A stretch of DNA of 33,255 nucleotides. It comes from a virus. Its lineage: Duplodnaviria > Heunggongvirae > Uroviricota > Caudoviricetes. A program made the position numbers and the translations under genes. Below the pieces are notes generated by a model. It worked only from the letters and a program-made list of their open reading frames with translations. It did no database searches and had not been told where the DNA came from. This document shows, in pieces, positions 2,968-20,758 of the stretch (the first letter of the stretch is position 1; each line of letters begins with the position of its first letter). The stretch lies in the IMG/VR virus record IMGVR_UViG_3300028581_000022, positions 64,001 through 97,255 of that record; one strand, written 5' to 3'.

Positions 2968-4610
2968 AAATTAATTTAGACGAAGAAACAAAATATAAGT
3001 TAAAAATAGCAGCTCCTAGCGAGCCAGCTGTTGAGACTCCAATTGAAGAACCTATGGCTGAGCCAACTGCTGAAGAACCAGCAGCGCCAGTTGATGACAT
3101 AGCGCCTGCTGACGCATCATTAGAAGCCCCAGCAACAGATGATAAACCATTTGATGACGAGCCATTTGATGCTGGTGTTGAGGCCGATGAAGAAACGGAC
3201 CCAAAGAAATTTATCCAACAACTAACTGGTAAGTTAGGACAATCCCTTAGAAAATATAACGAAGAGCAAGGTCAACCAGATTTCGAATTAGAGAAATTTG
3301 CGATTAATTCATTATTGTCAGCCACTCACACAGGTGAAATGGACGCTGAAGACCAAAAAGATATCATAAGCAAAGTTAAAAAATCAGGTGTTGGTGACGA
3401 AGAAGCACCAGCAGACACTGAGGCTCCGTCAGAGGAAGCACCAGCTGAAGAACCATCTAGTGATTTAGATTTTGGCGGTGAAGAAGAAATCGAAGAGAAC
3501 ATGTTTATTGACAATCCTAAAAAATTAAGCATATTTGCACCAGAAGGTAGTAAAGAGGCCGAATATCAAAATACACACAATCCTATACAAAAAGAGTCAA
3601 ATAACTACATGTTTTGGCAAAATCTTAAAACCATTCATCACGCTGCTGGTGAATTATTAAAAATGAATTACGATGAAGTTGACGCTTTATTGTCAGATGG
3701 TCATGGATGGGCTTTGGACCATATAGCCACATCTGCTGATGATGTTGAAGAAGTTTATCATTTCATCGAAGGTAGATTAAATGATTACCATGTAGATTCT
3801 GATGACCAATATGAAATGGAAGATGAATGGTCAGCTCCAATGGAATTGCATAAAGAAATGATGGTTTCTGATGATTTAAAATACCATATTGAAAATGAAA
3901 TTCCTTTGAACGAAACAATATATAGAGTCGGTTCAGAAAAATATTTTAATTTGATTAAAGAAGTTAAGTCTTTATATTCAAAAGGGCTTATTAAACTTAA
4001 TGAAAATGATGCATTTATTGTTAATGAATTTGATAATCAATATATCATGCTTGAAGGTAAAAAGGTTAAGATGAACTTTATCTATGAAGAAGCTGAAACA
4101 GAAGAAATAAATGAAGCTGAAAATGTAAAAGTTGGTGACAAATTATATCATAAAAACTCTGATTCTACTTTAGAAGTAATTGATGTTACACCAAAAACAA
4201 TCAGTATGAAAGTTACAAAAACATCTGATAAAACACCTTCATATGTTAAAGTAGGTGATACATCAAAAACTGGTCCAGCTGCTATAGGTAAAACTTACGA
4301 ACTTATTAATGAAGCTGAGTATAAGGGTAAAAAAGTTCAATTAGGTAAACCTAAAAGAGGCGGTTCAAAGAAATTCTATGTTTATGTAAGAGACCCTCAA
4401 TCTGGTAACATTAAAAAAGTATCATTTGGTGCTAAGTCTGGTGGTGGTAACTTGGCTGTTAAGTTAAGAGACCCTAAAGCTAGAAAAGCATTTTCAGATA
4501 GACATAACTGTCCTTCAAAGACAGACAGAACTAGCCCAGGGTATTGGGCTTGCCGTTTGCCAAGATACGCTAAATCATTAGGTTTAGCAGGTGGTGGTAC
4601 ATGGTGGTAA
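2949..4610 (+). CDS. Modular putative internal head protein. First ATG is at 3054, but the frame is open and protein-like from 2949.
   Basis: Pro/Ala/Glu linkers alternate with globular modules (DKPFDDEPFDAGVEADE..PKKFIQQLTGKL; NYMFWQNL..DGHGWALDHI; VSDDLKYHIEN; KVGD SH3/KOW-like; AEYKGKKVQLGKP..SFG..RHNC..YWAC). The last module resembles a small T4-like phage family recalled as DUF6321 (unverified). Confidence 0.85.
   Translation, partial: SKKKSLKINLDEETKYKLKIAAPSEPAVETPIEEPMAEPTAEEPAAPVDDIAPADASLEAPATDDKPFDDEPFDAGVEADEETDPKKFIQQLTGKLGQSLRKYNEEQGQPDFELEKFAINSLLSATHTGEMDAEDQKDIISKVKKSGVGDEEAPADTEAPSEEAPAEEPSSDLDFGGEEEIEENMFIDNPKKLSIFAPEGSKEAEYQNTHNPIQKESNNYMFWQNLKTIHHAAGELLKMNYDEVDALLSDGHGWALDHIATSADDVEEVYHFIEGRLNDYHVDSDDQYEMEDEWSAPMELHKEMMVSDDLKYHIENEIPLNETIYRVGSEKYFNLIKEVKSLYSKGLIKLNENDAFIVNEFDNQYIMLEGKKVKMNFIYEEAETEEINEAENVKVGDKLYHKNSDSTLEVIDVTPKTISMKVTKTSDKTPSYVKVGDTSKTGPAAIGKTYELINEAEYKGKKVQLGKPKRGGSKKFYVYVRDPQSGNIKKVSFGAKSGGGNLAVKLRDPKARKAFSDRHNCPSKTDRTSPGYWACRLPRYAKSLGLAGGGTWW
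2952..2981 (+). other. Candidate -1 programmed frameshift / transcriptional slippage site
   Basis: A10 run (2952-2961) just before the stop, followed by the hairpin GTCTAAA-aattaa-TTTAGAC (2962-2981). The -1 frame is open from 2949 to 4610. Confidence 0.65.
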
Positions 4611-9397: not shown

Positions 9398-11176
9398 ATG
9401 CTAAGTAGAGAAGAAATCTTTAAGGAATATGCAAAGTGTTTAACTAGTCCAATATACGCTATTGAGACTTATTTGGAGACATTTGATAAAACCCAAGAAG
9501 GTTTTGTACCATTTAAGTTATTTCCCAGACAAAAAGAAATCATACACGCATATCAAAAGCATAGATTTAATTTAGTTACAAAACCAAGACAGGCTGGTGT
9601 ATCTACCACAACAGCTGCTCATATGTCAATTAAAGTTAGTTTTGCTGACTCTGAAAATCCAGAAGCGGTTCTAATCATTGCGAACAAACAAGAATTGGCG
9701 TTTGAATTTTTGGCTAAAATTAAAGATTTTGTTTCACAATTACCAAGATGGGTTTGGGGAGCTGAATACTATGGTAATCAAAAAAATGAAGAAAAGTCAA
9801 TATTCCTTACTGACTCTAAAAAAGAAATAAAACTACCTAATGGTAGCCGTGTAAAAGCGGTGGCAACATCTAAAGATGCTTTGCGTGGTTTTACACCAAC
9901 TTATTTAATTATGGATGAAGCAGCATATATTGATAATGGTGCTGAGGTATTTGGTGCTGCTCTCACAGCACTTGGTACTGGTGGTCATTGTATATTAATT
10001 AGTACACCAAGAGGTATGGATGCTTTATATTACAAAACATACGACCAAGCTAGAAAAAAGGAAAACAATTTCAATATCATTGAAATGAAATGGTATGAAG
10101 ACTTGCGCTATAATAAAGATTTACGTTGGACTAAAGATGAGGTAACAGAACACGAGGTTGAATTTACCTTCGATTCTTACCAAAAAAGAATTTCAGAAGG
10201 TTGGAAACCAACATCTTCATGGTATGAAGAAATGTGTCGTGGTATGAACAATGACGCTAAGATGATTGCTCAAGAATTGGATGTTTCTTTTATTGGTTCT
10301 GGTGGAAACGTTATTGATGAACAGTATATCGAATATCAAAATAATTTTAACGTAAAGGAACCGTTGTATACAGCTGGGCCAGATGGTGACATTTGGATTT
10401 GGGCGGAACCTCAAGAAGGACATCAGTACATTTTAGCTTCCGATGTATCTAGAGGTGATGGTGAAGACTCATCTACAATGGTTATATTAGATTTTACAAC
10501 AATGGAACAAGTGGTTGAATATCAAGGCAAAATTCAACCAGATTTATTAGCACAAATAATTGAGGAATACGGAGATTTATATAAGGCTTATACAGTTGTT
10601 GATGCAACTGGTGGTATGGGTGTTTCTACTATTCTTAAATTATTAGAGTTTGGTTATAAAAGATTACATTATGATAATCAAAATGGAAAAATTTTGTCAA
10701 GTAGGCAAAGAGAGTTAAATAGTTTTAACAAAGATAATAAAATACCAGGATTTCATGCAACATCAGTTCGTTTACCAATGGTATCTAATTTGGAATTTAA
10801 AATTAGAACAGACGCTGTTAAAATTCGTTCAGTTAGAATGACGTCTGAAATGAAAACGTTTATTTATAAAAACGGTAGACCAGACCATATGGATGGTTAT
10901 CATGATGATTTGCTAATGGCTATGGCTATGTGTTTATGGGTTATTGAACATTCTTTTAAAAATCTAGAAAGATTAGAAAAACAAAATAAAGCGATGTTGA
11001 GTAGTTGGGTTGTTGGTTCACCAGCAACAAAGGAAGAGCCAGCATCTGGTAATTTTGTTAGCAAAGAAAACAGACATAAGGCGGCAACGCCAAAACCTAA
11101 ATTTAACCCAGCAATTTCTAAAAATATGCAAGACCCTTTAGGGCAATACATGTGGTTATTTAACGGAATGAGATAA
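9398..11176 (+). CDS. terL: Terminase large subunit (T4 gp17-like)
   Basis: Walker A region KPRQAGVST, Walker B LIMDEAAYI, motif III ISTPRG, and RNase H-like nuclease motifs LASDVSRGDGEDSS and HDDLLMA. Confidence 0.96.
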   Translation: MLSREEIFKEYAKCLTSPIYAIETYLETFDKTQEGFVPFKLFPRQKEIIHAYQKHRFNLVTKPRQAGVSTTTAAHMSIKVSFADSENPEAVLIIANKQELAFEFLAKIKDFVSQLPRWVWGAEYYGNQKNEEKSIFLTDSKKEIKLPNGSRVKAVATSKDALRGFTPTYLIMDEAAYIDNGAEVFGAALTALGTGGHCILISTPRGMDALYYKTYDQARKKENNFNIIEMKWYEDLRYNKDLRWTKDEVTEHEVEFTFDSYQKRISEGWKPTSSWYEEMCRGMNNDAKMIAQELDVSFIGSGGNVIDEQYIEYQNNFNVKEPLYTAGPDGDIWIWAEPQEGHQYILASDVSRGDGEDSSTMVILDFTTMEQVVEYQGKIQPDLLAQIIEEYGDLYKAYTVVDATGGMGVSTILKLLEFGYKRLHYDNQNGKILSSRQRELNSFNKDNKIPGFHATSVRLPMVSNLEFKIRTDAVKIRSVRMTSEMKTFIYKNGRPDHMDGYHDDLLMAMAMCLWVIEHSFKNLERLEKQNKAMLSSWVVGSPATKEEPASGNFVSKENRHKAATPKPKFNPAISKNMQDPLGQYMWLFNGMR

Positions 11177-11467: not shown

Positions 11468-14400
11468 ATGGCAGAAAATAGAAATTTAACTATATTTCAA
11501 AGATTAGGGCAAATTTTAGGTCCTGATTCGGCAAAATTAAAACAAAGTCAACCGCAACCACAACGTTACAATATGGGTAACGATGTATTGCTTAAAACAG
11601 ACAGCAAGGCTGACTTTGAAAGAGCTAAACTACAAACACAACAAAACAAATATTTGTCTCAAATGTGGAAAAAGGTTGAAAGCGGCCTTTTTCAACAATC
11701 AATAAACTATGAAACAACTCGTATTGGTTCGTATTCTGATTTTGAAGCAATGGAATTTTACCCAATAATTGCAGCTGCTTTGGATATCATGGCAGAAGAG
11801 TCAACGACTCTTAGTGATAAAGGTAAAGTACTTAATGTTTATTCAGATAGCAGTCGTGTTAAAGGTATCTTAGAAGATTTGTTTTTCAACAGATTAGATA
11901 TTCACACATCTTTACCAATGTGGACTAGAAATACACCTATCAGAGAAAACAGTGTTATACCATTATTAGATGGTACTGAGGTAACTATTAAAGAACTTTC
12001 TAATAGAGTTAAATCTGGTGAAGAAATATGGTCATACGCTATACAAGATGGTACCAAAGCAATTGTACCAAGTAAAATAATATGGTGTGACCTTACTAGA
12101 AAAGATTCTGAATTATATCGTGTTACTCTTGATGATGGTACGCACATTGACACAACCCCAGACCACGAATATATGCTTAGAGACGGTTCATTCAAAAGAG
12201 CTGATGAATTAACCAAAGGTCAGTCATTGATGCCTTTTTATACTAGAAAAAGTGAAAAGAAAAAAGATTGTATCGTAGGCTATGAAAAAATTTATAACCC
12301 TAACACAACTAAATATAGATTTACACATTCTTTAGTTGCACATGAATGTGTTAGAGATTCAAATTATGAAACTTCGGTTGGATGTCAATTTGATACACAT
12401 CATGCTGATTTTAATAAATTAAATAATCACCCTAGTAATTTAGTTAGATTAACCCATTCTGACCATTTTAAATTACATGTTGACCATTTTGATAAAATAT
12501 TAGGTTCGCCAGAAGTTATCAAAAAACGTATGGAAGGTATCGATAAATATTTACGTTCAGATGAAAGAAGAGAACGTTTAAGTGTTGAAATGTCTGGTAT
12601 CTATCCTAAATATTTTGAAGCATATAATAATTCTGATTTACATACAGAACATAATGAGATTCGTTCAAAAGGTATGTTATCAAATTGGAAAAATAGAGAA
12701 TTTATAGAACAAACCAAAAAAGGTATGACTATAGAAATTACTGATACTTGTTTTGACTATATTTCAAATATAATAAAAAATAACGAAAACTATGTTGGTG
12801 TTAATAAATTATCTGAATTGCTTAAAAATGATTCTGAATTTATTAATTTATTTAAAGAAGGTTATTCATTAAGAAAAGACATAGCAAAATCTATTAACCC
12901 AACTACTTTAACTAAAGTATTATTTAGAAAAACAAACCAAAATTATTTTGATTTTGTGTTGTCAATTAAACCAAGTTTGGTGATTGACAAGTCATATATA
13001 AAAGCTAAAGCAATCTATCTAGGAAAAACCAAAGAAAAGACCTTATTAAATCATAAAGTTGTTTCTATTGTTAAATTAAATGAAACATCCGATGTTTATT
13101 GTTTGGAAGCTGTTGGTCCTAACGGTGAGCATGATAGACATAATTTCCCAGTCTTAGGTAAAGATGTAAACGATTTATACTCAAGGACTTCTGGTGTATT
13201 TTTGTCCAACTGTAAATATGGTGACAACTTTGTGTTTTTGAATATTGATGACGTGCATGGTGTTACTGGCGCTAAACAAATGCCAAACTATGAAATGGAA
13301 AGAAGAGAAAGTGGTTTATTTGATATGATTACTGGTAGGGAAACACCAAATGCAAATGTAGCAGTTGCAGACAAAGTTAAATTTTACTGGAGAGGCCGTG
13401 ATGTTGAGTTTAATTCATGGCAAATTGCTCACTTTAGATTAACTGGTGATGACAGACGTTTACCATATGGTACTTCAATTTTGGAAAAGGCTAGACGTAT
13501 TTGGAAACAGCTTATCTTATCTGAAGATTCTATGTTGGTTTATCGTGTAACTCGTGCGCCAGAAAGACGTGTTTATAAAATATACGTTGGTAATATCGAT
13601 GATGCTGATGTACCAGCATACGTAAATGAAATTGCTGATAGATTTAAGAGAATTCCAATTACTGACCCACAAACTGGCCAAATGGACCTTAGATATAATC
13701 AATTATCTAACGACCAAGACTTCTTTATTCCAGTTCGTTCTGAAGATGCACCAAATCCTATTGACACACTTCCAGGTGCTAGCAACTTAGACCAAATTGC
13801 TGATATTGAATATTTGAGAAATAATTTATTTACAGCTTTGCGTGTACCAAAACCATTTTTAGGTTTTGATGAAGCAACTGGTGAAGGTAAAAACCTTGCT
13901 TTGCAAGACATTCGTTTTTCTAGAACCATAAACAGAATTCAGCAATCAATGCTTCAAGAGCTTAATAAGATTGCGATTATTCATTTGTATTTGTTAGGTT
14001 TTGATGAGGACTTTGATAACTTTACACTTACACTTAACAATCCATCTACTCAAGCTGAGATGCTTAAAATTGAACACACTCAATCTAAAGTAACACTTTA
14101 TAAAGATGCTGTGTCTGATGCTGGTAATGGATTTGCAGCTATGTCAATGACTAGAGCTAAACGAGATATATTAGGAATGTCTGATGACGAAATCAAAAAA
14201 GATTTGCTTGAACAAAGACTTGAAAAAGCAGCTGCTGCTGAATTGGCTAATTCTTCTAACGTAATCAAACATACTGGTATGTTTGATATAGTTGACAGAG
14301 TATATGGTGACATAAAATCAGCACTTAAAGGTGATGGAGAAGGCGGAGAAGCCGCTAGTGGGGAAAAAGGTGCTACAACCACAAGTGGTGGTGGTGGTGG

Positions 14401-14824
14401 TGGATTAGGCGGTTCATTTGGTGGTGGAGGCGTAGGTGGTGAAGACCTAGATTTTGGTGGTGACGAAGAAGGTGAAGGTGAAGCTGCTACTGAAGCTGGT
14501 GCTGAAGCTGAAGCTGGTGCTGAGATAGGTGGTGCTGAAGAAGATGCTACTGAGGCTGGCGCTGAAGAGGCTGCACCAACTGAAGTAACAGAATCAGTTA
14601 AAAAAATTGACAAGCTATTGAAAGAACAAAAAAGATTATTGACCAAGAAATTAGATGATAGAACCAAAAAATATAAAGGTAGATTTGTTGACGCTTTGTT
14701 AGACTCTATCATACCAACAAAAAAAGAGATTAACGAGAGAGTTAAAATTTACGATAAAAACGTAAAAATAAACAAAGATGTTGATGATATGATAAACGGC
14801 ATTGATAAAATGTTGGGTGAGTAG
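11468..14824 (+). CDS. gp20: Portal protein (T4 gp20-like) precursor containing an intein; predicted spliced length 693 aa
   Basis: Portal motifs IAAALDIMAEEST, WTRNT|CKYGDNF, RARRIWKQL.L.EDSMLVYRVTRAPERRVYKIYVGN, QDFFIPVR, IDTLPG, IADIEY, LRVPK.FLG and QDIRFSRTINRIQ. Confidence 0.95.
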   Translation: MAENRNLTIFQRLGQILGPDSAKLKQSQPQPQRYNMGNDVLLKTDSKADFERAKLQTQQNKYLSQMWKKVESGLFQQSINYETTRIGSYSDFEAMEFYPIIAAALDIMAEESTTLSDKGKVLNVYSDSSRVKGILEDLFFNRLDIHTSLPMWTRNTPIRENSVIPLLDGTEVTIKELSNRVKSGEEIWSYAIQDGTKAIVPSKIIWCDLTRKDSELYRVTLDDGTHIDTTPDHEYMLRDGSFKRADELTKGQSLMPFYTRKSEKKKDCIVGYEKIYNPNTTKYRFTHSLVAHECVRDSNYETSVGCQFDTHHADFNKLNNHPSNLVRLTHSDHFKLHVDHFDKILGSPEVIKKRMEGIDKYLRSDERRERLSVEMSGIYPKYFEAYNNSDLHTEHNEIRSKGMLSNWKNREFIEQTKKGMTIEITDTCFDYISNIIKNNENYVGVNKLSELLKNDSEFINLFKEGYSLRKDIAKSINPTTLTKVLFRKTNQNYFDFVLSIKPSLVIDKSYIKAKAIYLGKTKEKTLLNHKVVSIVKLNETSDVYCLEAVGPNGEHDRHNFPVLGKDVNDLYSRTSGVFLSNCKYGDNFVFLNIDDVHGVTGAKQMPNYEMERRESGLFDMITGRETPNANVAVADKVKFYWRGRDVEFNSWQIAHFRLTGDDRRLPYGTSILEKARRIWKQLILSEDSMLVYRVTRAPERRVYKIYVGNIDDADVPAYVNEIADRFKRIPITDPQTGQMDLRYNQLSNDQDFFIPVRSEDAPNPIDTLPGASNLDQIADIEYLRNNLFTALRVPKPFLGFDEATGEGKNLALQDIRFSRTINRIQQSMLQELNKIAIIHLYLLGFDEDFDNFTLTLNNPSTQAEMLKIEHTQSKVTLYKDAVSDAGNGFAAMSMTRAKRDILGMSDDEIKKDLLEQRLEKAAAAELANSSNVIKHTGMFDIVDRVYGDIKSALKGDGEGGEAASGEKGATTTSGGGGGGLGGSFGGGGVGGEDLDFGGDEEGEGEAATEAGAEAEAGAEIGGAEEDATEAGAEEAAPTEVTESVKKIDKLLKEQKRLLTKKLDDRTKKYKGRFVDALLDSIIPTKKEINERVKIYDKNVKINKDVDDMINGIDKMLGE
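11936..13210 (+). mobile_element. Intein (425 aa) with an HNH homing endonuclease; Pro at position 1 and Cys in block F (class-3-like)
   Basis: Block A-like PIRENSVIPLLDG, block B TTPDHEY, HNH motif THHADFNKLNNHPSNLVRLTHSDHFKLH, block F DVYCLEA and the C-terminal junction FLSN|C. Removing it restores WTRNTCKYGD. Confidence 0.9.
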
Positions 14825-16735: not shown

Positions 16736-16765
16736 AAACCCTAGAAATAAATCTAGGGTTTTTTT
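16736..16765 (+). terminator. Rho-independent terminator
   Basis: AAACCCTAGA-aataaa-TCTAGGGTTT followed by a T run. Confidence 0.88.
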
Positions 16766-16777
16766 GTTTGTATACGA

Positions 16778-16785
16778 TATTTATA
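16778..16785 (+). promoter_or_regulatory. Putative phage late promoter core (TATTTATA)
   Basis: 17 nt before ATG 16803. Confidence 0.65.
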
Positions 16786-16802
16786 TCTATAAGCTAGCAA
16801 AT

Positions 16803-17522
16803 ATGGATATAAATTATAAAGACTTTAAAATATTAAAACGTGGTGAAACAGGCTGGGGTGGACTAATTGAACATGATGCTGGTTATATTAGTCCTGATGA
16901 ACCTAGAAATCAAGCGTTCATAAATGAAATAAAAAAACTTGATAGTGGTAAAATGATAATAGCAGAACCACTAGTTGTTTACGTTATATTACAAAAATAT
17001 GGTGTTCTTAATCGTAACGGTAGAATATATCCAGAACAAGTTTTAAAAAAGCAAGACGAAATATATCAGAAAGCTATTAGAGAGCGTAGTGCTGTTGGTG
17101 AATTAGACCACCCAGAATCTAGCATTATTGCTGGTGATAGAATATCTCACAATATTATTGAGACTTGGTGGGAAGGTAAAACCCTTATGGGTAAAATGGA
17201 AATCCTTATGACGCCAGGTTTTATAAACTATGGTATTGTTTCAACCAAAGGTGATGAGGTTGCAAATCTTTTAAGAAATAGAATTAAGATTGGTGTTTCT
17301 TCTAGAGGTGTTGGTTCACTTAAAGAAGGTAGAAATGGTGAACAAATTGTTCAAGACGATTTTGAAATAATTTGTTGGGATGTTGTTACAGCACCATCAA
17401 CACCAGATGCTTGGATATTTAGAGATGTTGCTGAAGCTAAACCTTACGTTGAAAGCGTTGAAAAGACAGCAAGTGTAATAAAAGAAAGTTTGAAAGACAA
17501 ACTTGATAATTTCTTGTTATAA
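16803..17522 (+). CDS. gp21: Prohead core protease (T4 gp21-like)
   Basis: NRNGRIYP, AVGELDHP, catalytic-region SHNI and GVSSRGVGSL, DVVTAPSTP. The start is moved to ATG 16803 because the TTG at 16764 lies in the terminator T run. Confidence 0.93.
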   Translation: MDINYKDFKILKRGETGWGGLIEHDAGYISPDEPRNQAFINEIKKLDSGKMIIAEPLVVYVILQKYGVLNRNGRIYPEQVLKKQDEIYQKAIRERSAVGELDHPESSIIAGDRISHNIIETWWEGKTLMGKMEILMTPGFINYGIVSTKGDEVANLLRNRIKIGVSSRGVGSLKEGRNGEQIVQDDFEIICWDVVTAPSTPDAWIFRDVAEAKPYVESVEKTASVIKESLKDKLDNFLL

Positions 17523-18862: not shown

Positions 18863-20758
18863 ATGTCACATTTATTAACATCTGGACAAGTGGGTAACAT
18901 CGGATTAAACCACATGAAGGCTATCCGTAAAGAAACCCAATCAAAGTGGGAAAGCTTAGGCTTCCTTGAAGGTCTTAAAGGCCACGTAAAAGAAAACATC
19001 GCTCAGTTGTATGAAAACCAAGCTTCAACTTTGTTGACTGAAACTACAACTGCGACTTCTTCTGGTTCATTCGAAACAGTAGTATTCCCTATCGTAAGAC
19101 GTGTTTTCTCTAAATTATTAGCTAATGACGTTGTGTCAGTTCAAGCTATGAACATGCCTATCGGTAAATTGTTCTATTTCGTACCTCTTACATCTAGCCG
19201 TGTAGATGGTTCTACACCTCCTGTAGCTGGTAATAACTATGATAATGTTAACTATAACAGTACAAACAGTCCTTACTCAGCTCACACATCATTTGCTTCT
19301 ACTGGTATTCCATCTTGCGTATTGCCATCTAATGGAAGTTGTGCTGTAACACCTTTTATGGCTAAAAACTTATACGACATTTTCTACAATGACGGTATGT
19401 TTGACCAATCTAAAGGTACTCTTACTATCAGAACTTATACTATCACAAACGCTAACGCTTCTGCATTAAGTGCTGGTGGTTCTTTCTCAACTCCAGCTCC
19501 AAGTACTTCATGGGCTACTGCTGCTGACGGTTCTGTAAGATACGCTATGTTAACCATTAGTGGTTTCACTGGTGGTGCTGGTTCACCTGCTGGTCGTGAA
19601 GTATTGACTGGTCCTGATGGTAACAACATGGACACTGAGTCATTCTTGGCTTCATTGCACTGTGTAACAACTAACGCAATTCTTGACAAAGATGGTAATA
19701 CTATCATCGCTGCTGGTACTGAAGTTCCTTTCCGTATCGTTACTCAACAATATGGTAAAGCTATCGTTCAAACAACAAACGTAAACTCTTCTGGTTACCC
19801 AGTATTGACTACACCAAATGGTGTTATGTATGTTGAGCTTGACCTTACTCACCCAGTAGGTACAACTGCTGGTTCTGCTGCTGCTGTAGTTCCAGGTACT
19901 TCAACCTATGATGGTTATGTTGGTGCTTCTGCTACAACTATATCTGCTATCACTACAACTGCTGGTTTAGCTTTCTCATGGGCTGAATACGCTTCTCTTG
20001 AATTGGAAACTGAATTGAATGAAGTTTCTTTCAGACTTGATGAAGTTGTTGTTGCTGTTGAAGAAAGAAAATTACGTGCAACATGGTCACCAGAATTAGC
20101 TCAAGACGTTAGTGCATTCCACAACATTGATGCTGAAGCTGAATTGACTGCAATGCTTTCTGAGCAAGTTGCTGCGGAAATTGACCGTGAAATCCTTAGA
20201 GACCTTCGTAAAGCTGCTGCATGGCAATTGCGTTGGGACTACAACGGATGGAGAAGAGCTTCTTCTGCTGCTAGCCCTTACACTCAAAAGGACTGGAACC
20301 AAACTCTTATCACTAAGATTAACCAAATCTCTGCTCAAATCCACAAGTCAACACTTCGTGGTGGTGCTAACTTCATCGTTGTATCTTCTGAAATTTCAGC
20401 TGTATTCGATGACTTAGAATACTTCCACGTATCTGATGCTAACCCTGAGCAAGACCAATATAACATGGGTATCGAAAGAATCGGTACATTGGGTGGTCGT
20501 TATCAAGTATACCGTGACCCATATGCACCATCTTACTCTGTAATTATCGGTCACAAAGGTAAATCATTGTTGGATACAGGTTACATCTACGCACCATACG
20601 TGCCTTTGCAACTTACTCCTACTATGTACAATCCTTTCAACTTCGCTCCAGTGAAGGGTATCATGACTCGTTACGCCAAAAAAATTGTAAATAACAGATT
20701 TTACGGTCATGTGCGTGTAGACGGTGTACCTACTTTCAACGTAGCAGAACTTAGATAA
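18863..20758 (+). CDS. gp23: Major capsid protein (T4 gp23-like) with a large Ser/Thr-rich insertion
   Basis: FPIVRRVF, VSVQAMNMPIGKLFY, RKLRATWSPELAQDVSAFHNIDAEAEL..EIDREI, YAPYVPL, PVKGIMTRY. Codon usage looks high-expression (TTC, AAC, TAC, ATC, CGT). Confidence 0.97.
   Translation: MSHLLTSGQVGNIGLNHMKAIRKETQSKWESLGFLEGLKGHVKENIAQLYENQASTLLTETTTATSSGSFETVVFPIVRRVFSKLLANDVVSVQAMNMPIGKLFYFVPLTSSRVDGSTPPVAGNNYDNVNYNSTNSPYSAHTSFASTGIPSCVLPSNGSCAVTPFMAKNLYDIFYNDGMFDQSKGTLTIRTYTITNANASALSAGGSFSTPAPSTSWATAADGSVRYAMLTISGFTGGAGSPAGREVLTGPDGNNMDTESFLASLHCVTTNAILDKDGNTIIAAGTEVPFRIVTQQYGKAIVQTTNVNSSGYPVLTTPNGVMYVELDLTHPVGTTAGSAAAVVPGTSTYDGYVGASATTISAITTTAGLAFSWAEYASLELETELNEVSFRLDEVVVAVEERKLRATWSPELAQDVSAFHNIDAEAELTAMLSEQVAAEIDREILRDLRKAAAWQLRWDYNGWRRASSAASPYTQKDWNQTLITKINQISAQIHKSTLRGGANFIVVSSEISAVFDDLEYFHVSDANPEQDQYNMGIERIGTLGGRYQVYRDPYAPSYSVIIGHKGKSLLDTGYIYAPYVPLQLTPTMYNPFNFAPVKGIMTRYAKKIVNNRFYGHVRVDGVPTFNVAELR

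Follow-up and report, generated by a model that had tools for sequence, protein, structure and literature searches.

A proline-initiated intein in the portal gene of a T4-like phage, with a block F cysteine as the predicted first nucleophile

The 33,255-nucleotide stretch of viral DNA analyzed here (hereafter the window; positions 64,001 to 97,255 of IMG/VR record IMGVR_UViG_3300028581_000022) comes from an uncultivated large T4-like phage with a 97-kb record estimated to be 28% complete. Its T4 gp20-type portal gene contains an intein that begins with proline, present in one copy in the record. We consider the element likely to be functional and mobile and to splice by class 3-type chemistry, with Cys545 at position 4 of block F (F:4) attacking first. 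This route is the best reading because Pro1 and Cys F:4 covary throughout a clade of related inteins, because the pair persists where the residue following the intein (+1) is Ser or Thr, and because both lobes of the splicing domain are under strong selection.

The boundaries of the exteins were taken from empty-site alleles, and those of the intein from its exact insertion relative to intein-less alleles:

11468-14824, plus strand: portal gene of T4 gp20 type, encoding a precursor of 1118 residues with a predicted spliced product of 693 residues
11468-11935, plus strand: N-extein, residues 1-156, ending in PMWTRNT
11936-13210, plus strand: intein of 425 residues, Pro157 to Asn581
13211-14824, plus strand: C-extein, beginning with Cys582 (+1) and reading CKYGDNF

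A homologue search of a 5.8-billion-protein collection returned >1600 homologues. Portals without the intein (682-694 residues) read PMWTRNT-CKYGDNF (a hyphen marks the junction) in >40 cases, the nearest of them 96-98% identical to the exteins. The 68 intein-bearing orthologues at this site have RN(T/L/V/M/I/A)-P(I/V)R at the N-terminal junction and (S/A/M)N-CK(Y/F)GD at the C-terminal junction. Relative to the syntenic intein-less loci L001 and L002, the window has 1275 additional nt, cleanly inserted after AAYACA and before TGTAAA. Intein-plus and intein-minus portal alleles coexist in near-identical genomes. Junctions with Thr156 as residue 1, or with Cys582 inside the intein, did not reproduce the WTRNTCKYGD empty site and were ruled out. 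Only Pro157-Asn581 reproduces it, so Thr156 is residue -1 and Cys582 is +1. The element is identified as an intein by its precise in-frame insertion, its C-terminal Asn581, and Cys582 at +1. The original prediction, made from the window alone, had taken Pro157 as intein residue 1 with the junction WTRNT-CKYGD, and both the >40 empty proteins and the two DNA loci uphold it. Intein-less alleles reading WTRNCKYG, named beforehand as incompatible with that junction, were looked for, and the alleles instead read WTRNTCKYG. All of the features named in that prediction were present where it had placed them. The Pro1 junction is independently confirmed by a second site, which is empty in the window portal (RYNQL-SNDQ, residues 742-750) and likewise in P0001 (RYNQL-SNDQ), and where relatives hold P...N inteins.

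In the window this second site falls at 13705/13706, and its occupants in relatives are Pro1 or Cys1 inteins. Another site, at 13780/13781 (DTLPGA-SN), is also empty here and holds Cys1 inteins in relatives. Many intein-less alleles have Val for the +1 Cys (WTRNT-V-KYGD; P0054-P0059, P0074, P0078, P0083, P0086, P0105). With Val at +1 they could not support splicing, and they may resist productive invasion by the intein or be variants of the cleavage site. The 663 nt directly 3' of the insertion site (13211-13873) are identical to positions 3469-4131 of the intein-less locus L002. On the 5' side the two differ at 26 positions in 653 nt, the closest difference lying 4 nt away from the junction, and 79 differences occur in the 4 kb downstream of the identical tract. 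With a post-hoc probability of ~5e-6 for such a clean tract, the pattern suggests that recombination ended at the homing site when the intein was recently gained, lost, or co-converted.

The catalytic residues and domains of the intein are as follows:

11936-12247, plus strand: HINT N-lobe, intein residues 1-104, with block A from Pro157, the W206-C207-D208 loop, and block B as T230-x-x-H233-x-Y235
11936-11938, plus strand: Pro157, first residue of block A, codon CCT
12086-12088, plus strand: Cys207 (Cys51 in intein numbering), the other conserved cysteine, located after block A and before block B
12248-12490, plus strand: nuclease module of HNH (beta-beta-alpha-Me) type, in which nt 12398-12466 encode the motif His311-His312...Asn320, Asn324...His333
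12491-13039, plus strand: all-helical region of ~180 residues following the HNH module, intein residues ~186-368, with confident helices in both models
13040-13210, plus strand: HINT C-lobe, intein residues ~369-425, with block F as V-Y-C545-L-E...D-R-H558-N-F and block G as V-F-L579-S580-N581
13100-13102, plus strand: Cys545, block F:4, predicted initiating nucleophile
Other catalytic residues, checked codon by codon: Thr230-x-x-His233, Tyr235 (B:12), His558 (F:13), Leu579 (G:5), Ser580-Asn581, and Cys582 (+1)

Pro1, Thr B:7, His B:10, Cys F:4, His F:13, the terminal Asn, and Cys+1 are invariant in the 68 site orthologues. The intein has no Cys, Ser, or Thr at position 1 and has Cys at F:4 (C2:4). 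An intein without an N-terminal Cys and with Cys at C2:4 falls within the operational definition of class 3 used in a 1701-intein census (PMC7891396). Three features of the class 3 signature are missing, namely Trp B:12, Thr G:5, and Ser/Thr at +1. The positions of the Trp-Cys-Thr (WCT) triplet were Y-C-L in 56 of the site orthologues, F-C-V in 9, Y-C-V in 2, and Y-C-M in 1, and the penultimate residue was Ser, Ala, or Met but never His.

Of the 4810 proteins that a profile search of 1.84 billion representatives retrieved, 1008 reached E ≤ 1e-30; portals with several inteins were numerous among the matches. Hidden Markov models (HMMs) of both HINT lobes were scored on 265 retrieved proteins, in which 174 N-lobes were Pro1, 203 Cys1, and 2 Ser1. 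Pro1 and Cys F:4 covaried. All 149 Pro1 inteins with a recognizable C-lobe had Cys at F:4, while Cys1 relatives from the same proteins had mostly Asp, Thr, or Asn (Asp 56, Thr 28, Cys 21, Asn 7). Cys545 in place of the usual block F Asp, as originally proposed, is thus a property of the whole group, and its candidacy as nucleophile gains comparative support from the same counts, which include 49 Pro1 inteins with Ser or Thr at +1. These 49 occupy other sites and have mostly Lys, Arg, or Gly as the penultimate residue, yet every one retains Pro1 and Cys F:4. Ser or Thr at +1 cannot start splicing themselves (Tori & Perler, PMC5222942). Pro1 inteins were found at ≥4 portal sites: RN(T/L)-CKYGD, YNxL-S, GGQF-TGDI, and FNLQ-T/S.

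The altered triplet reported in the original prediction (Tyr235, Leu579) also proved to be clade-wide, in the form Y/F-C-L/V. Position B:12 across the Pro1 clade was Phe in 85, Tyr in 70, as here, Val in 8, Trp in 6, and Ile in 4. Position G:5, here Leu579, was Leu, Val, or Ile, with Thr in only 2/149. No Pro1 intein had the full WCT triplet, and none had a penultimate His. The S-N terminus that had been singled out in place of H-N is present (Ser580-Asn581) but is not unusual, as the penultimate His is often missing in phage inteins (Kelley 2016, PMC5050341).

N-lobe trees were built without residue 1 and without the prototype Bethlehem intein, which was too dissimilar for reliable alignment. 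All Pro1 inteins formed one clade nested among Cys1 inteins (FastTree support 0.96 with 313 tips; IQ-TREE Shimodaira-Hasegawa-like approximate likelihood ratio test (SH-aLRT) 69 with 146 tips). The sole non-Pro members were P0153 (146-567) and P0159 (148-563), which begin with Cys1, are 40-42% identical, and occupy the same portal site. They keep Cys51, Cys F:4, and the triplet F-C-V. Since they lie deep inside the Pro1 clade they look like reversions, and are probably natural Pro-to-Cys reversions.

Roughly two dozen Cys1 inteins of the same portal proteins have Cys at F:4 (e.g., P0124:1105, P0125:1076, P0127:1034, and P0260:866), with block F reading DTGCITVE or DTWCMEV, and so hold both candidate nucleophiles. 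Related portals reach 2800-3000 residues with up to 9 HINT-matching stretches (P0122, P0123), and T4-type portal genes of large environmental phages are hot spots for intein homing. A literature search on portal or gp20 class 3 HNH inteins returned actinophage surveys only and nothing on the Pro1 portal clade.

The occurrence of Pro1 inteins at several sites also bears on a class 2-type reaction as in KlbA, in which Cys582 would attack the Thr156-Pro157 bond directly and Cys545 would be only structural or regulatory. Such a reaction fits the invariant Cys+1 at the portal site (68 orthologues), the class 1/2-like TxxH kept in block B, and a HINT domain nearer in sequence to class 1 than to class 3 inteins. 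KlbA-type inteins keep Asp at F:4. Their first residue is Ala1 and they have no WCT triplet (PMC2807308), the natural Cys+1 of the Bvi IcmO intein could not replace its Cys F:4 (PMC5222942), and members of the same clade with Ser/Thr at +1 are still Pro1 with Cys F:4 (49/49). We regard a class 2-type reaction as improbable here.

Pro157 is incapable of the N-S acyl shift. Under the favored class 3-type route, the Cys545 thiol, aided by block B His233, would instead attack the Thr156-Pro157 bond, and the N-extein would be held as an internal thioester branch. The N-extein would then move to Cys582. Asn581 would cyclize with the assistance of the retained block F His558, since the penultimate His is missing, and a final S-N shift would yield WTRNT-CKYGD. 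The in-frame HNH nuclease and helical domain would drive homing into intein-less portal alleles of close relatives. There are precedents: the Pro1 intein of phage Bethlehem splices via its F:4 Cys, which is obligate (PMC2807308), Bvi IcmO is a class 3 intein that functions with Cys+1 (PMC5222942), and the AceL NrdHF intein uses class 3 chemistry with M-C-T, without Trp B:12 and both assisting His residues (PMC7891396).

Several observations weigh against this route. Mutation of Trp B:12 blocks canonical class 3 splicing (PMC5222942), and Thr G:5 belongs to the Cys-His-Thr triad of canonical class 3 inteins (PMC7664689); both residues are replaced here. A class 1 intein onto which the WCT triplet was grafted did not splice (PMC7664689), and having Cys at F:4 is thus not enough by itself. 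The F:4 Cys is also found in ~24 Cys1 relatives and can therefore coexist with a position 1 nucleophile. Direct attack by Cys582 could in principle occur, and the class 3 assignment of the whole Pro1 clade derives from sequence comparison.

A second cysteine, Cys207, which the original prediction did not mention, may also be involved. Its equivalent was present in 166/174 Pro1 inteins vs 21/203 Cys1 relatives, and in the structural model the invariant W-C-D loop that holds it is flanked by strands 43-49 and 55-65 (intein numbering). Cys207 could take a direct part as first nucleophile, as a step in a three-cysteine relay, or as a disulfide partner of Cys545 that keeps the portal precursor inactive until conditions are reducing. 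Beyond its covariation with Pro1, Cys207 is invariant in 61 site orthologues, and Cys48 of the class 3 intein Msm DnaBi1, which also lies between blocks A and B, is joined to the F:4 Cys in a regulatory disulfide and affects splicing (PMC6195587). Eight Pro1 inteins lack Cys207, however, while none lacks Cys F:4, and Cys207 did not covary with the F:4 Cys among Cys1 relatives. Its spacing to the block B His is 26 residues vs 17 for Msm Cys48, and because of this difference the two cysteines may not be equivalent. A direct role of Cys207 is unlikely on this balance, although less so than a class 2-type reaction.

An AlphaFold2 model from 61 family members had a mean predicted local distance difference test (pLDDT) score of 89.5. 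The model has the HINT fold of inteins, with blocks A, B, F, and G and the optional endonuclease insert, and matched NrdJ-1 with Z 19.7, a root-mean-square deviation (rmsd) of 1.9 A, and 25% identity over 142 aligned residues. Scores to ~50 other inteins were Z 16-19. Invariant columns in the 61 sequences were P1, W50, C51, D52, T74, and H77 in the N-lobe and C389, E391, D400, R401, H402, N403, F404, and N425 in the C-lobe.

The HNH module matched PHROG HNH families (8e-9, 8e-8). Pfam HNH_3 was detected in 44/51 family members (best 1e-6), with the window sequence itself below the Pfam cutoff. The top Foldseek match was I-HmuI 1u3e (probability 0.99, 74 columns, rmsd 2.9 A), with an E value of only 0.11. 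The HH...N...N...H catalytic residues are invariant, as in HNH homing endonucleases. The original prediction had treated HNH in place of LAGLIDADG as atypical. The HNH domain is indeed present, but inteins with an HNH domain in frame are an established minority (bioRxiv 10.1101/2025.01.02.630785), and HNH domains are ordinary in phage inteins. The helical region had no significant Foldseek match among PDB folds and is presumed to be the DNA-binding part of the homing endonuclease. Relatives of 155-253 residues (mini-inteins) lack the whole HNH and helical insert, which marks it as a dispensable homing module.

The ratio of nonsynonymous to synonymous substitution rates (dN/dS) was calculated against the allele of a related phage (P0005 at locus L005, 80% identical). 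It was 0.14 for the whole intein, 0.09 for HINT-N, 0.13 for HNH, 0.18 for the helical region, 0.07 for HINT-C, and 0.08-0.10 for the exteins. These values indicate that all parts of the intein are under purifying selection at a level similar to that of the exteins. The intein had a G+C content of 28.9% vs 33.5-36.9% in the exteins. The reading frame is intact, and 7 contigs contain the same protein sequence.

These results also bear on whether the element splices at all. The element could be an assembly artefact, or a Hint insert that is decaying or able only to cleave. Such a reading would be consistent with the non-canonical residues at four catalytic positions, and splicing is here a prediction from sequence. 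Strong purifying selection on both HINT lobes (dN/dS 0.07-0.09), recurrence of the same protein on 7 contigs, >100 distinct relatives, the intact frame, and the interruption of an essential portal protein within a conserved domain all argue otherwise, making a non-splicing element very improbable.

Although its predicted chemistry is of class 3 type, the portal intein is closer to class 1 inteins in sequence. The family profile found class 1 inteins (NrdJ-1 at 6e-10 and DnaE inteins), whereas none of the solved class 3 inteins, including Msm DnaBi1, was found at E ≤ 10. By fold, solved class 3 inteins matched at Z 16-17, as would any HINT domain. Structure-based identity was 24-28% to class 1 DnaB, DnaE, and NrdJ-1 vs 11-16% to class 3 inteins (6BS8, 6RIX, 6ZGQ). 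NrdJ-1 and cyanobacterial DnaB and DnaE are the closest solved relatives by sequence and structure (Npu/Ssp DnaB 24-28% identity); all start with Cys1 and none with Pro. The original prediction had compared block F with that of class 3 inteins such as the phage Bethlehem prototype. Neither this prototype (family HMM score -0.3 bits) nor the solved class 3 inteins had a detectable sequence relation to the portal family.

The Bethlehem 'DnaB' intein (in gp11; PMC2807308) shares Pro1, Cys F:4, His B:10 and F:13, the C-terminal Asn, and a phage host gene with the portal intein. The portal intein differs in having Tyr rather than Trp at B:12, Leu rather than Thr at G:5, Ser rather than His at G:6, Cys rather than Ser/Thr at +1, a block B motif of TxxH rather than S/DxxH, and HNH rather than LAGLIDADG. 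LAGLIDADG was found in 82.5% of 1701 class 3 inteins (PMC7891396). The probable Cys1 revertants P0153 and P0159, with their F:4 Cys, parallel the 3/37 WCT inteins whose first residue is Ser or Cys (PMC2807308). Bethlehem gp52, annotated as a phosphoesterase (L004 7578-9296, minus strand), contains a different intein with block F VWCL (Cys F:4), ending T-G-N before a +1 Ser.

Bvi IcmO, the single known class 3 exception with Cys at +1 (PMC5222942), likewise combines the lack of an N-terminal nucleophile with an F:4 Cys and Cys+1, so that both branched intermediates would be thioesters, but it is a mini-intein with the WCT triplet and interrupts a gene on a bacterial plasmid (PMC5222942). The AceL NrdHF split intein (PDB 6ZGQ; PMC7891396) is also metagenomic and phage-type, and uses class 3 chemistry without Trp B:12 or a penultimate His. 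It differs in keeping Thr G:5, lacking His F:13, being split, and having no nuclease, and is 11% identical to the portal intein (Z 16.5). Msm DnaBi1 (PDB 6BS8; PMC6195587), 15% identical to the portal intein (Z 17.0), has an F:4 Cys that forms a redox-sensitive disulfide with another cysteine, located between blocks A and B. This second cysteine is not conserved among the relatives of Msm DnaBi1, whereas that of the portal clade is nearly invariant. A class 3 census (Hoffmann et al. 2020, Table S1) recorded the triplets W-C-T (1685), F-C-V (7/1702), and M-C-T (1) along with several rarer ones, and Y-C-L was not among them. The F-C-V variants of this census share their triplet with one branch of the Pro1 portal clade and were neither described nor tested there (Hoffmann et al. 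2020). The one clade accession checked, PCI27525.1, was not in the census list (Table S4).

The identity of the host gene is supported by its domain content and neighbors. The 1118-residue open reading frame (ORF) matched Pfam Portal_T4 (4e-68, only from residue 643 on) and Intein_splicing (2e-16, above cutoff), and T4 gp20 structures matched the portal at 7e-23. The intein-less homologue P0041 has an unbroken Portal_T4 match (residues 89-487 vs profile 5-426), so the intein interrupts a conserved domain of an essential protein. The insertion site could not be placed on the T4 gp20 structure because the pairwise match begins at residue 247 of the spliced protein and only the Pfam profile covers the site. 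The Portal_T4 domain and a T4-like head-morphogenesis cluster with the large terminase (TerL), protease, and gp23 as neighbors place the gene among portals of T4 gp20 type:

9398-11176: large terminase (Terminase_6N)
16764-17522: prohead protease (Peptidase_S77)
18863-20758: gp23-type capsid gene

The TerL of the window (592 residues) is intein-free. In the related phage with the 80% identical portal allele, the terminase product (L005 1-1208) has 1001 residues and a weak LAGLIDADG_3 match, and probably carries an intein. Near the C-terminus of the window portal (residues ~955-1050, window ~14330-14620) is a long Gly/Ala/Glu-rich low-complexity stretch that T4 gp20 lacks. An antisense ORF over this stretch (14098-14712) is probably a composition artefact.

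Class 3 inteins are defined by the WCT triplet, and whether their origin was divergent or convergent is debated (PMC7664689). The Pro1 portal inteins form a large lineage without the usual class 3 signature that may have acquired class 3-type chemistry independently. A stronger version, which we consider possible but rather doubtful, is that inteins with Pro1, Cys207, and the triplet [Tyr/Phe]-Cys-[Leu/Val] represent a second origin of block F cysteine splicing, from class 1 phage inteins rather than the WCT lineage, with an active site that works without Trp and Thr and a Cys207-Cys545 redox switch or relay on which portal maturation, and through it the assembly of the head, would depend. The suggestions in the original prediction that the intein is a mechanistic variant and that splicing gates head assembly are speculative. 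Of the class 3 features, >100 distinct natural inteins retain just the F:4 Cys and the absence of a position 1 nucleophile, against a class 1-like sequence, with Cys, Ser, or Thr at +1 and with natural Cys1 revertants. The mini-intein relatives of 155-250 residues are potential protein-engineering tools, and P0153 and P0159 would be useful for telling which nucleophile is used. The Pro1 clade is thus a ready test set for the residue requirements of the internal-cysteine mechanism and for whether this mechanism had more than one evolutionary origin.

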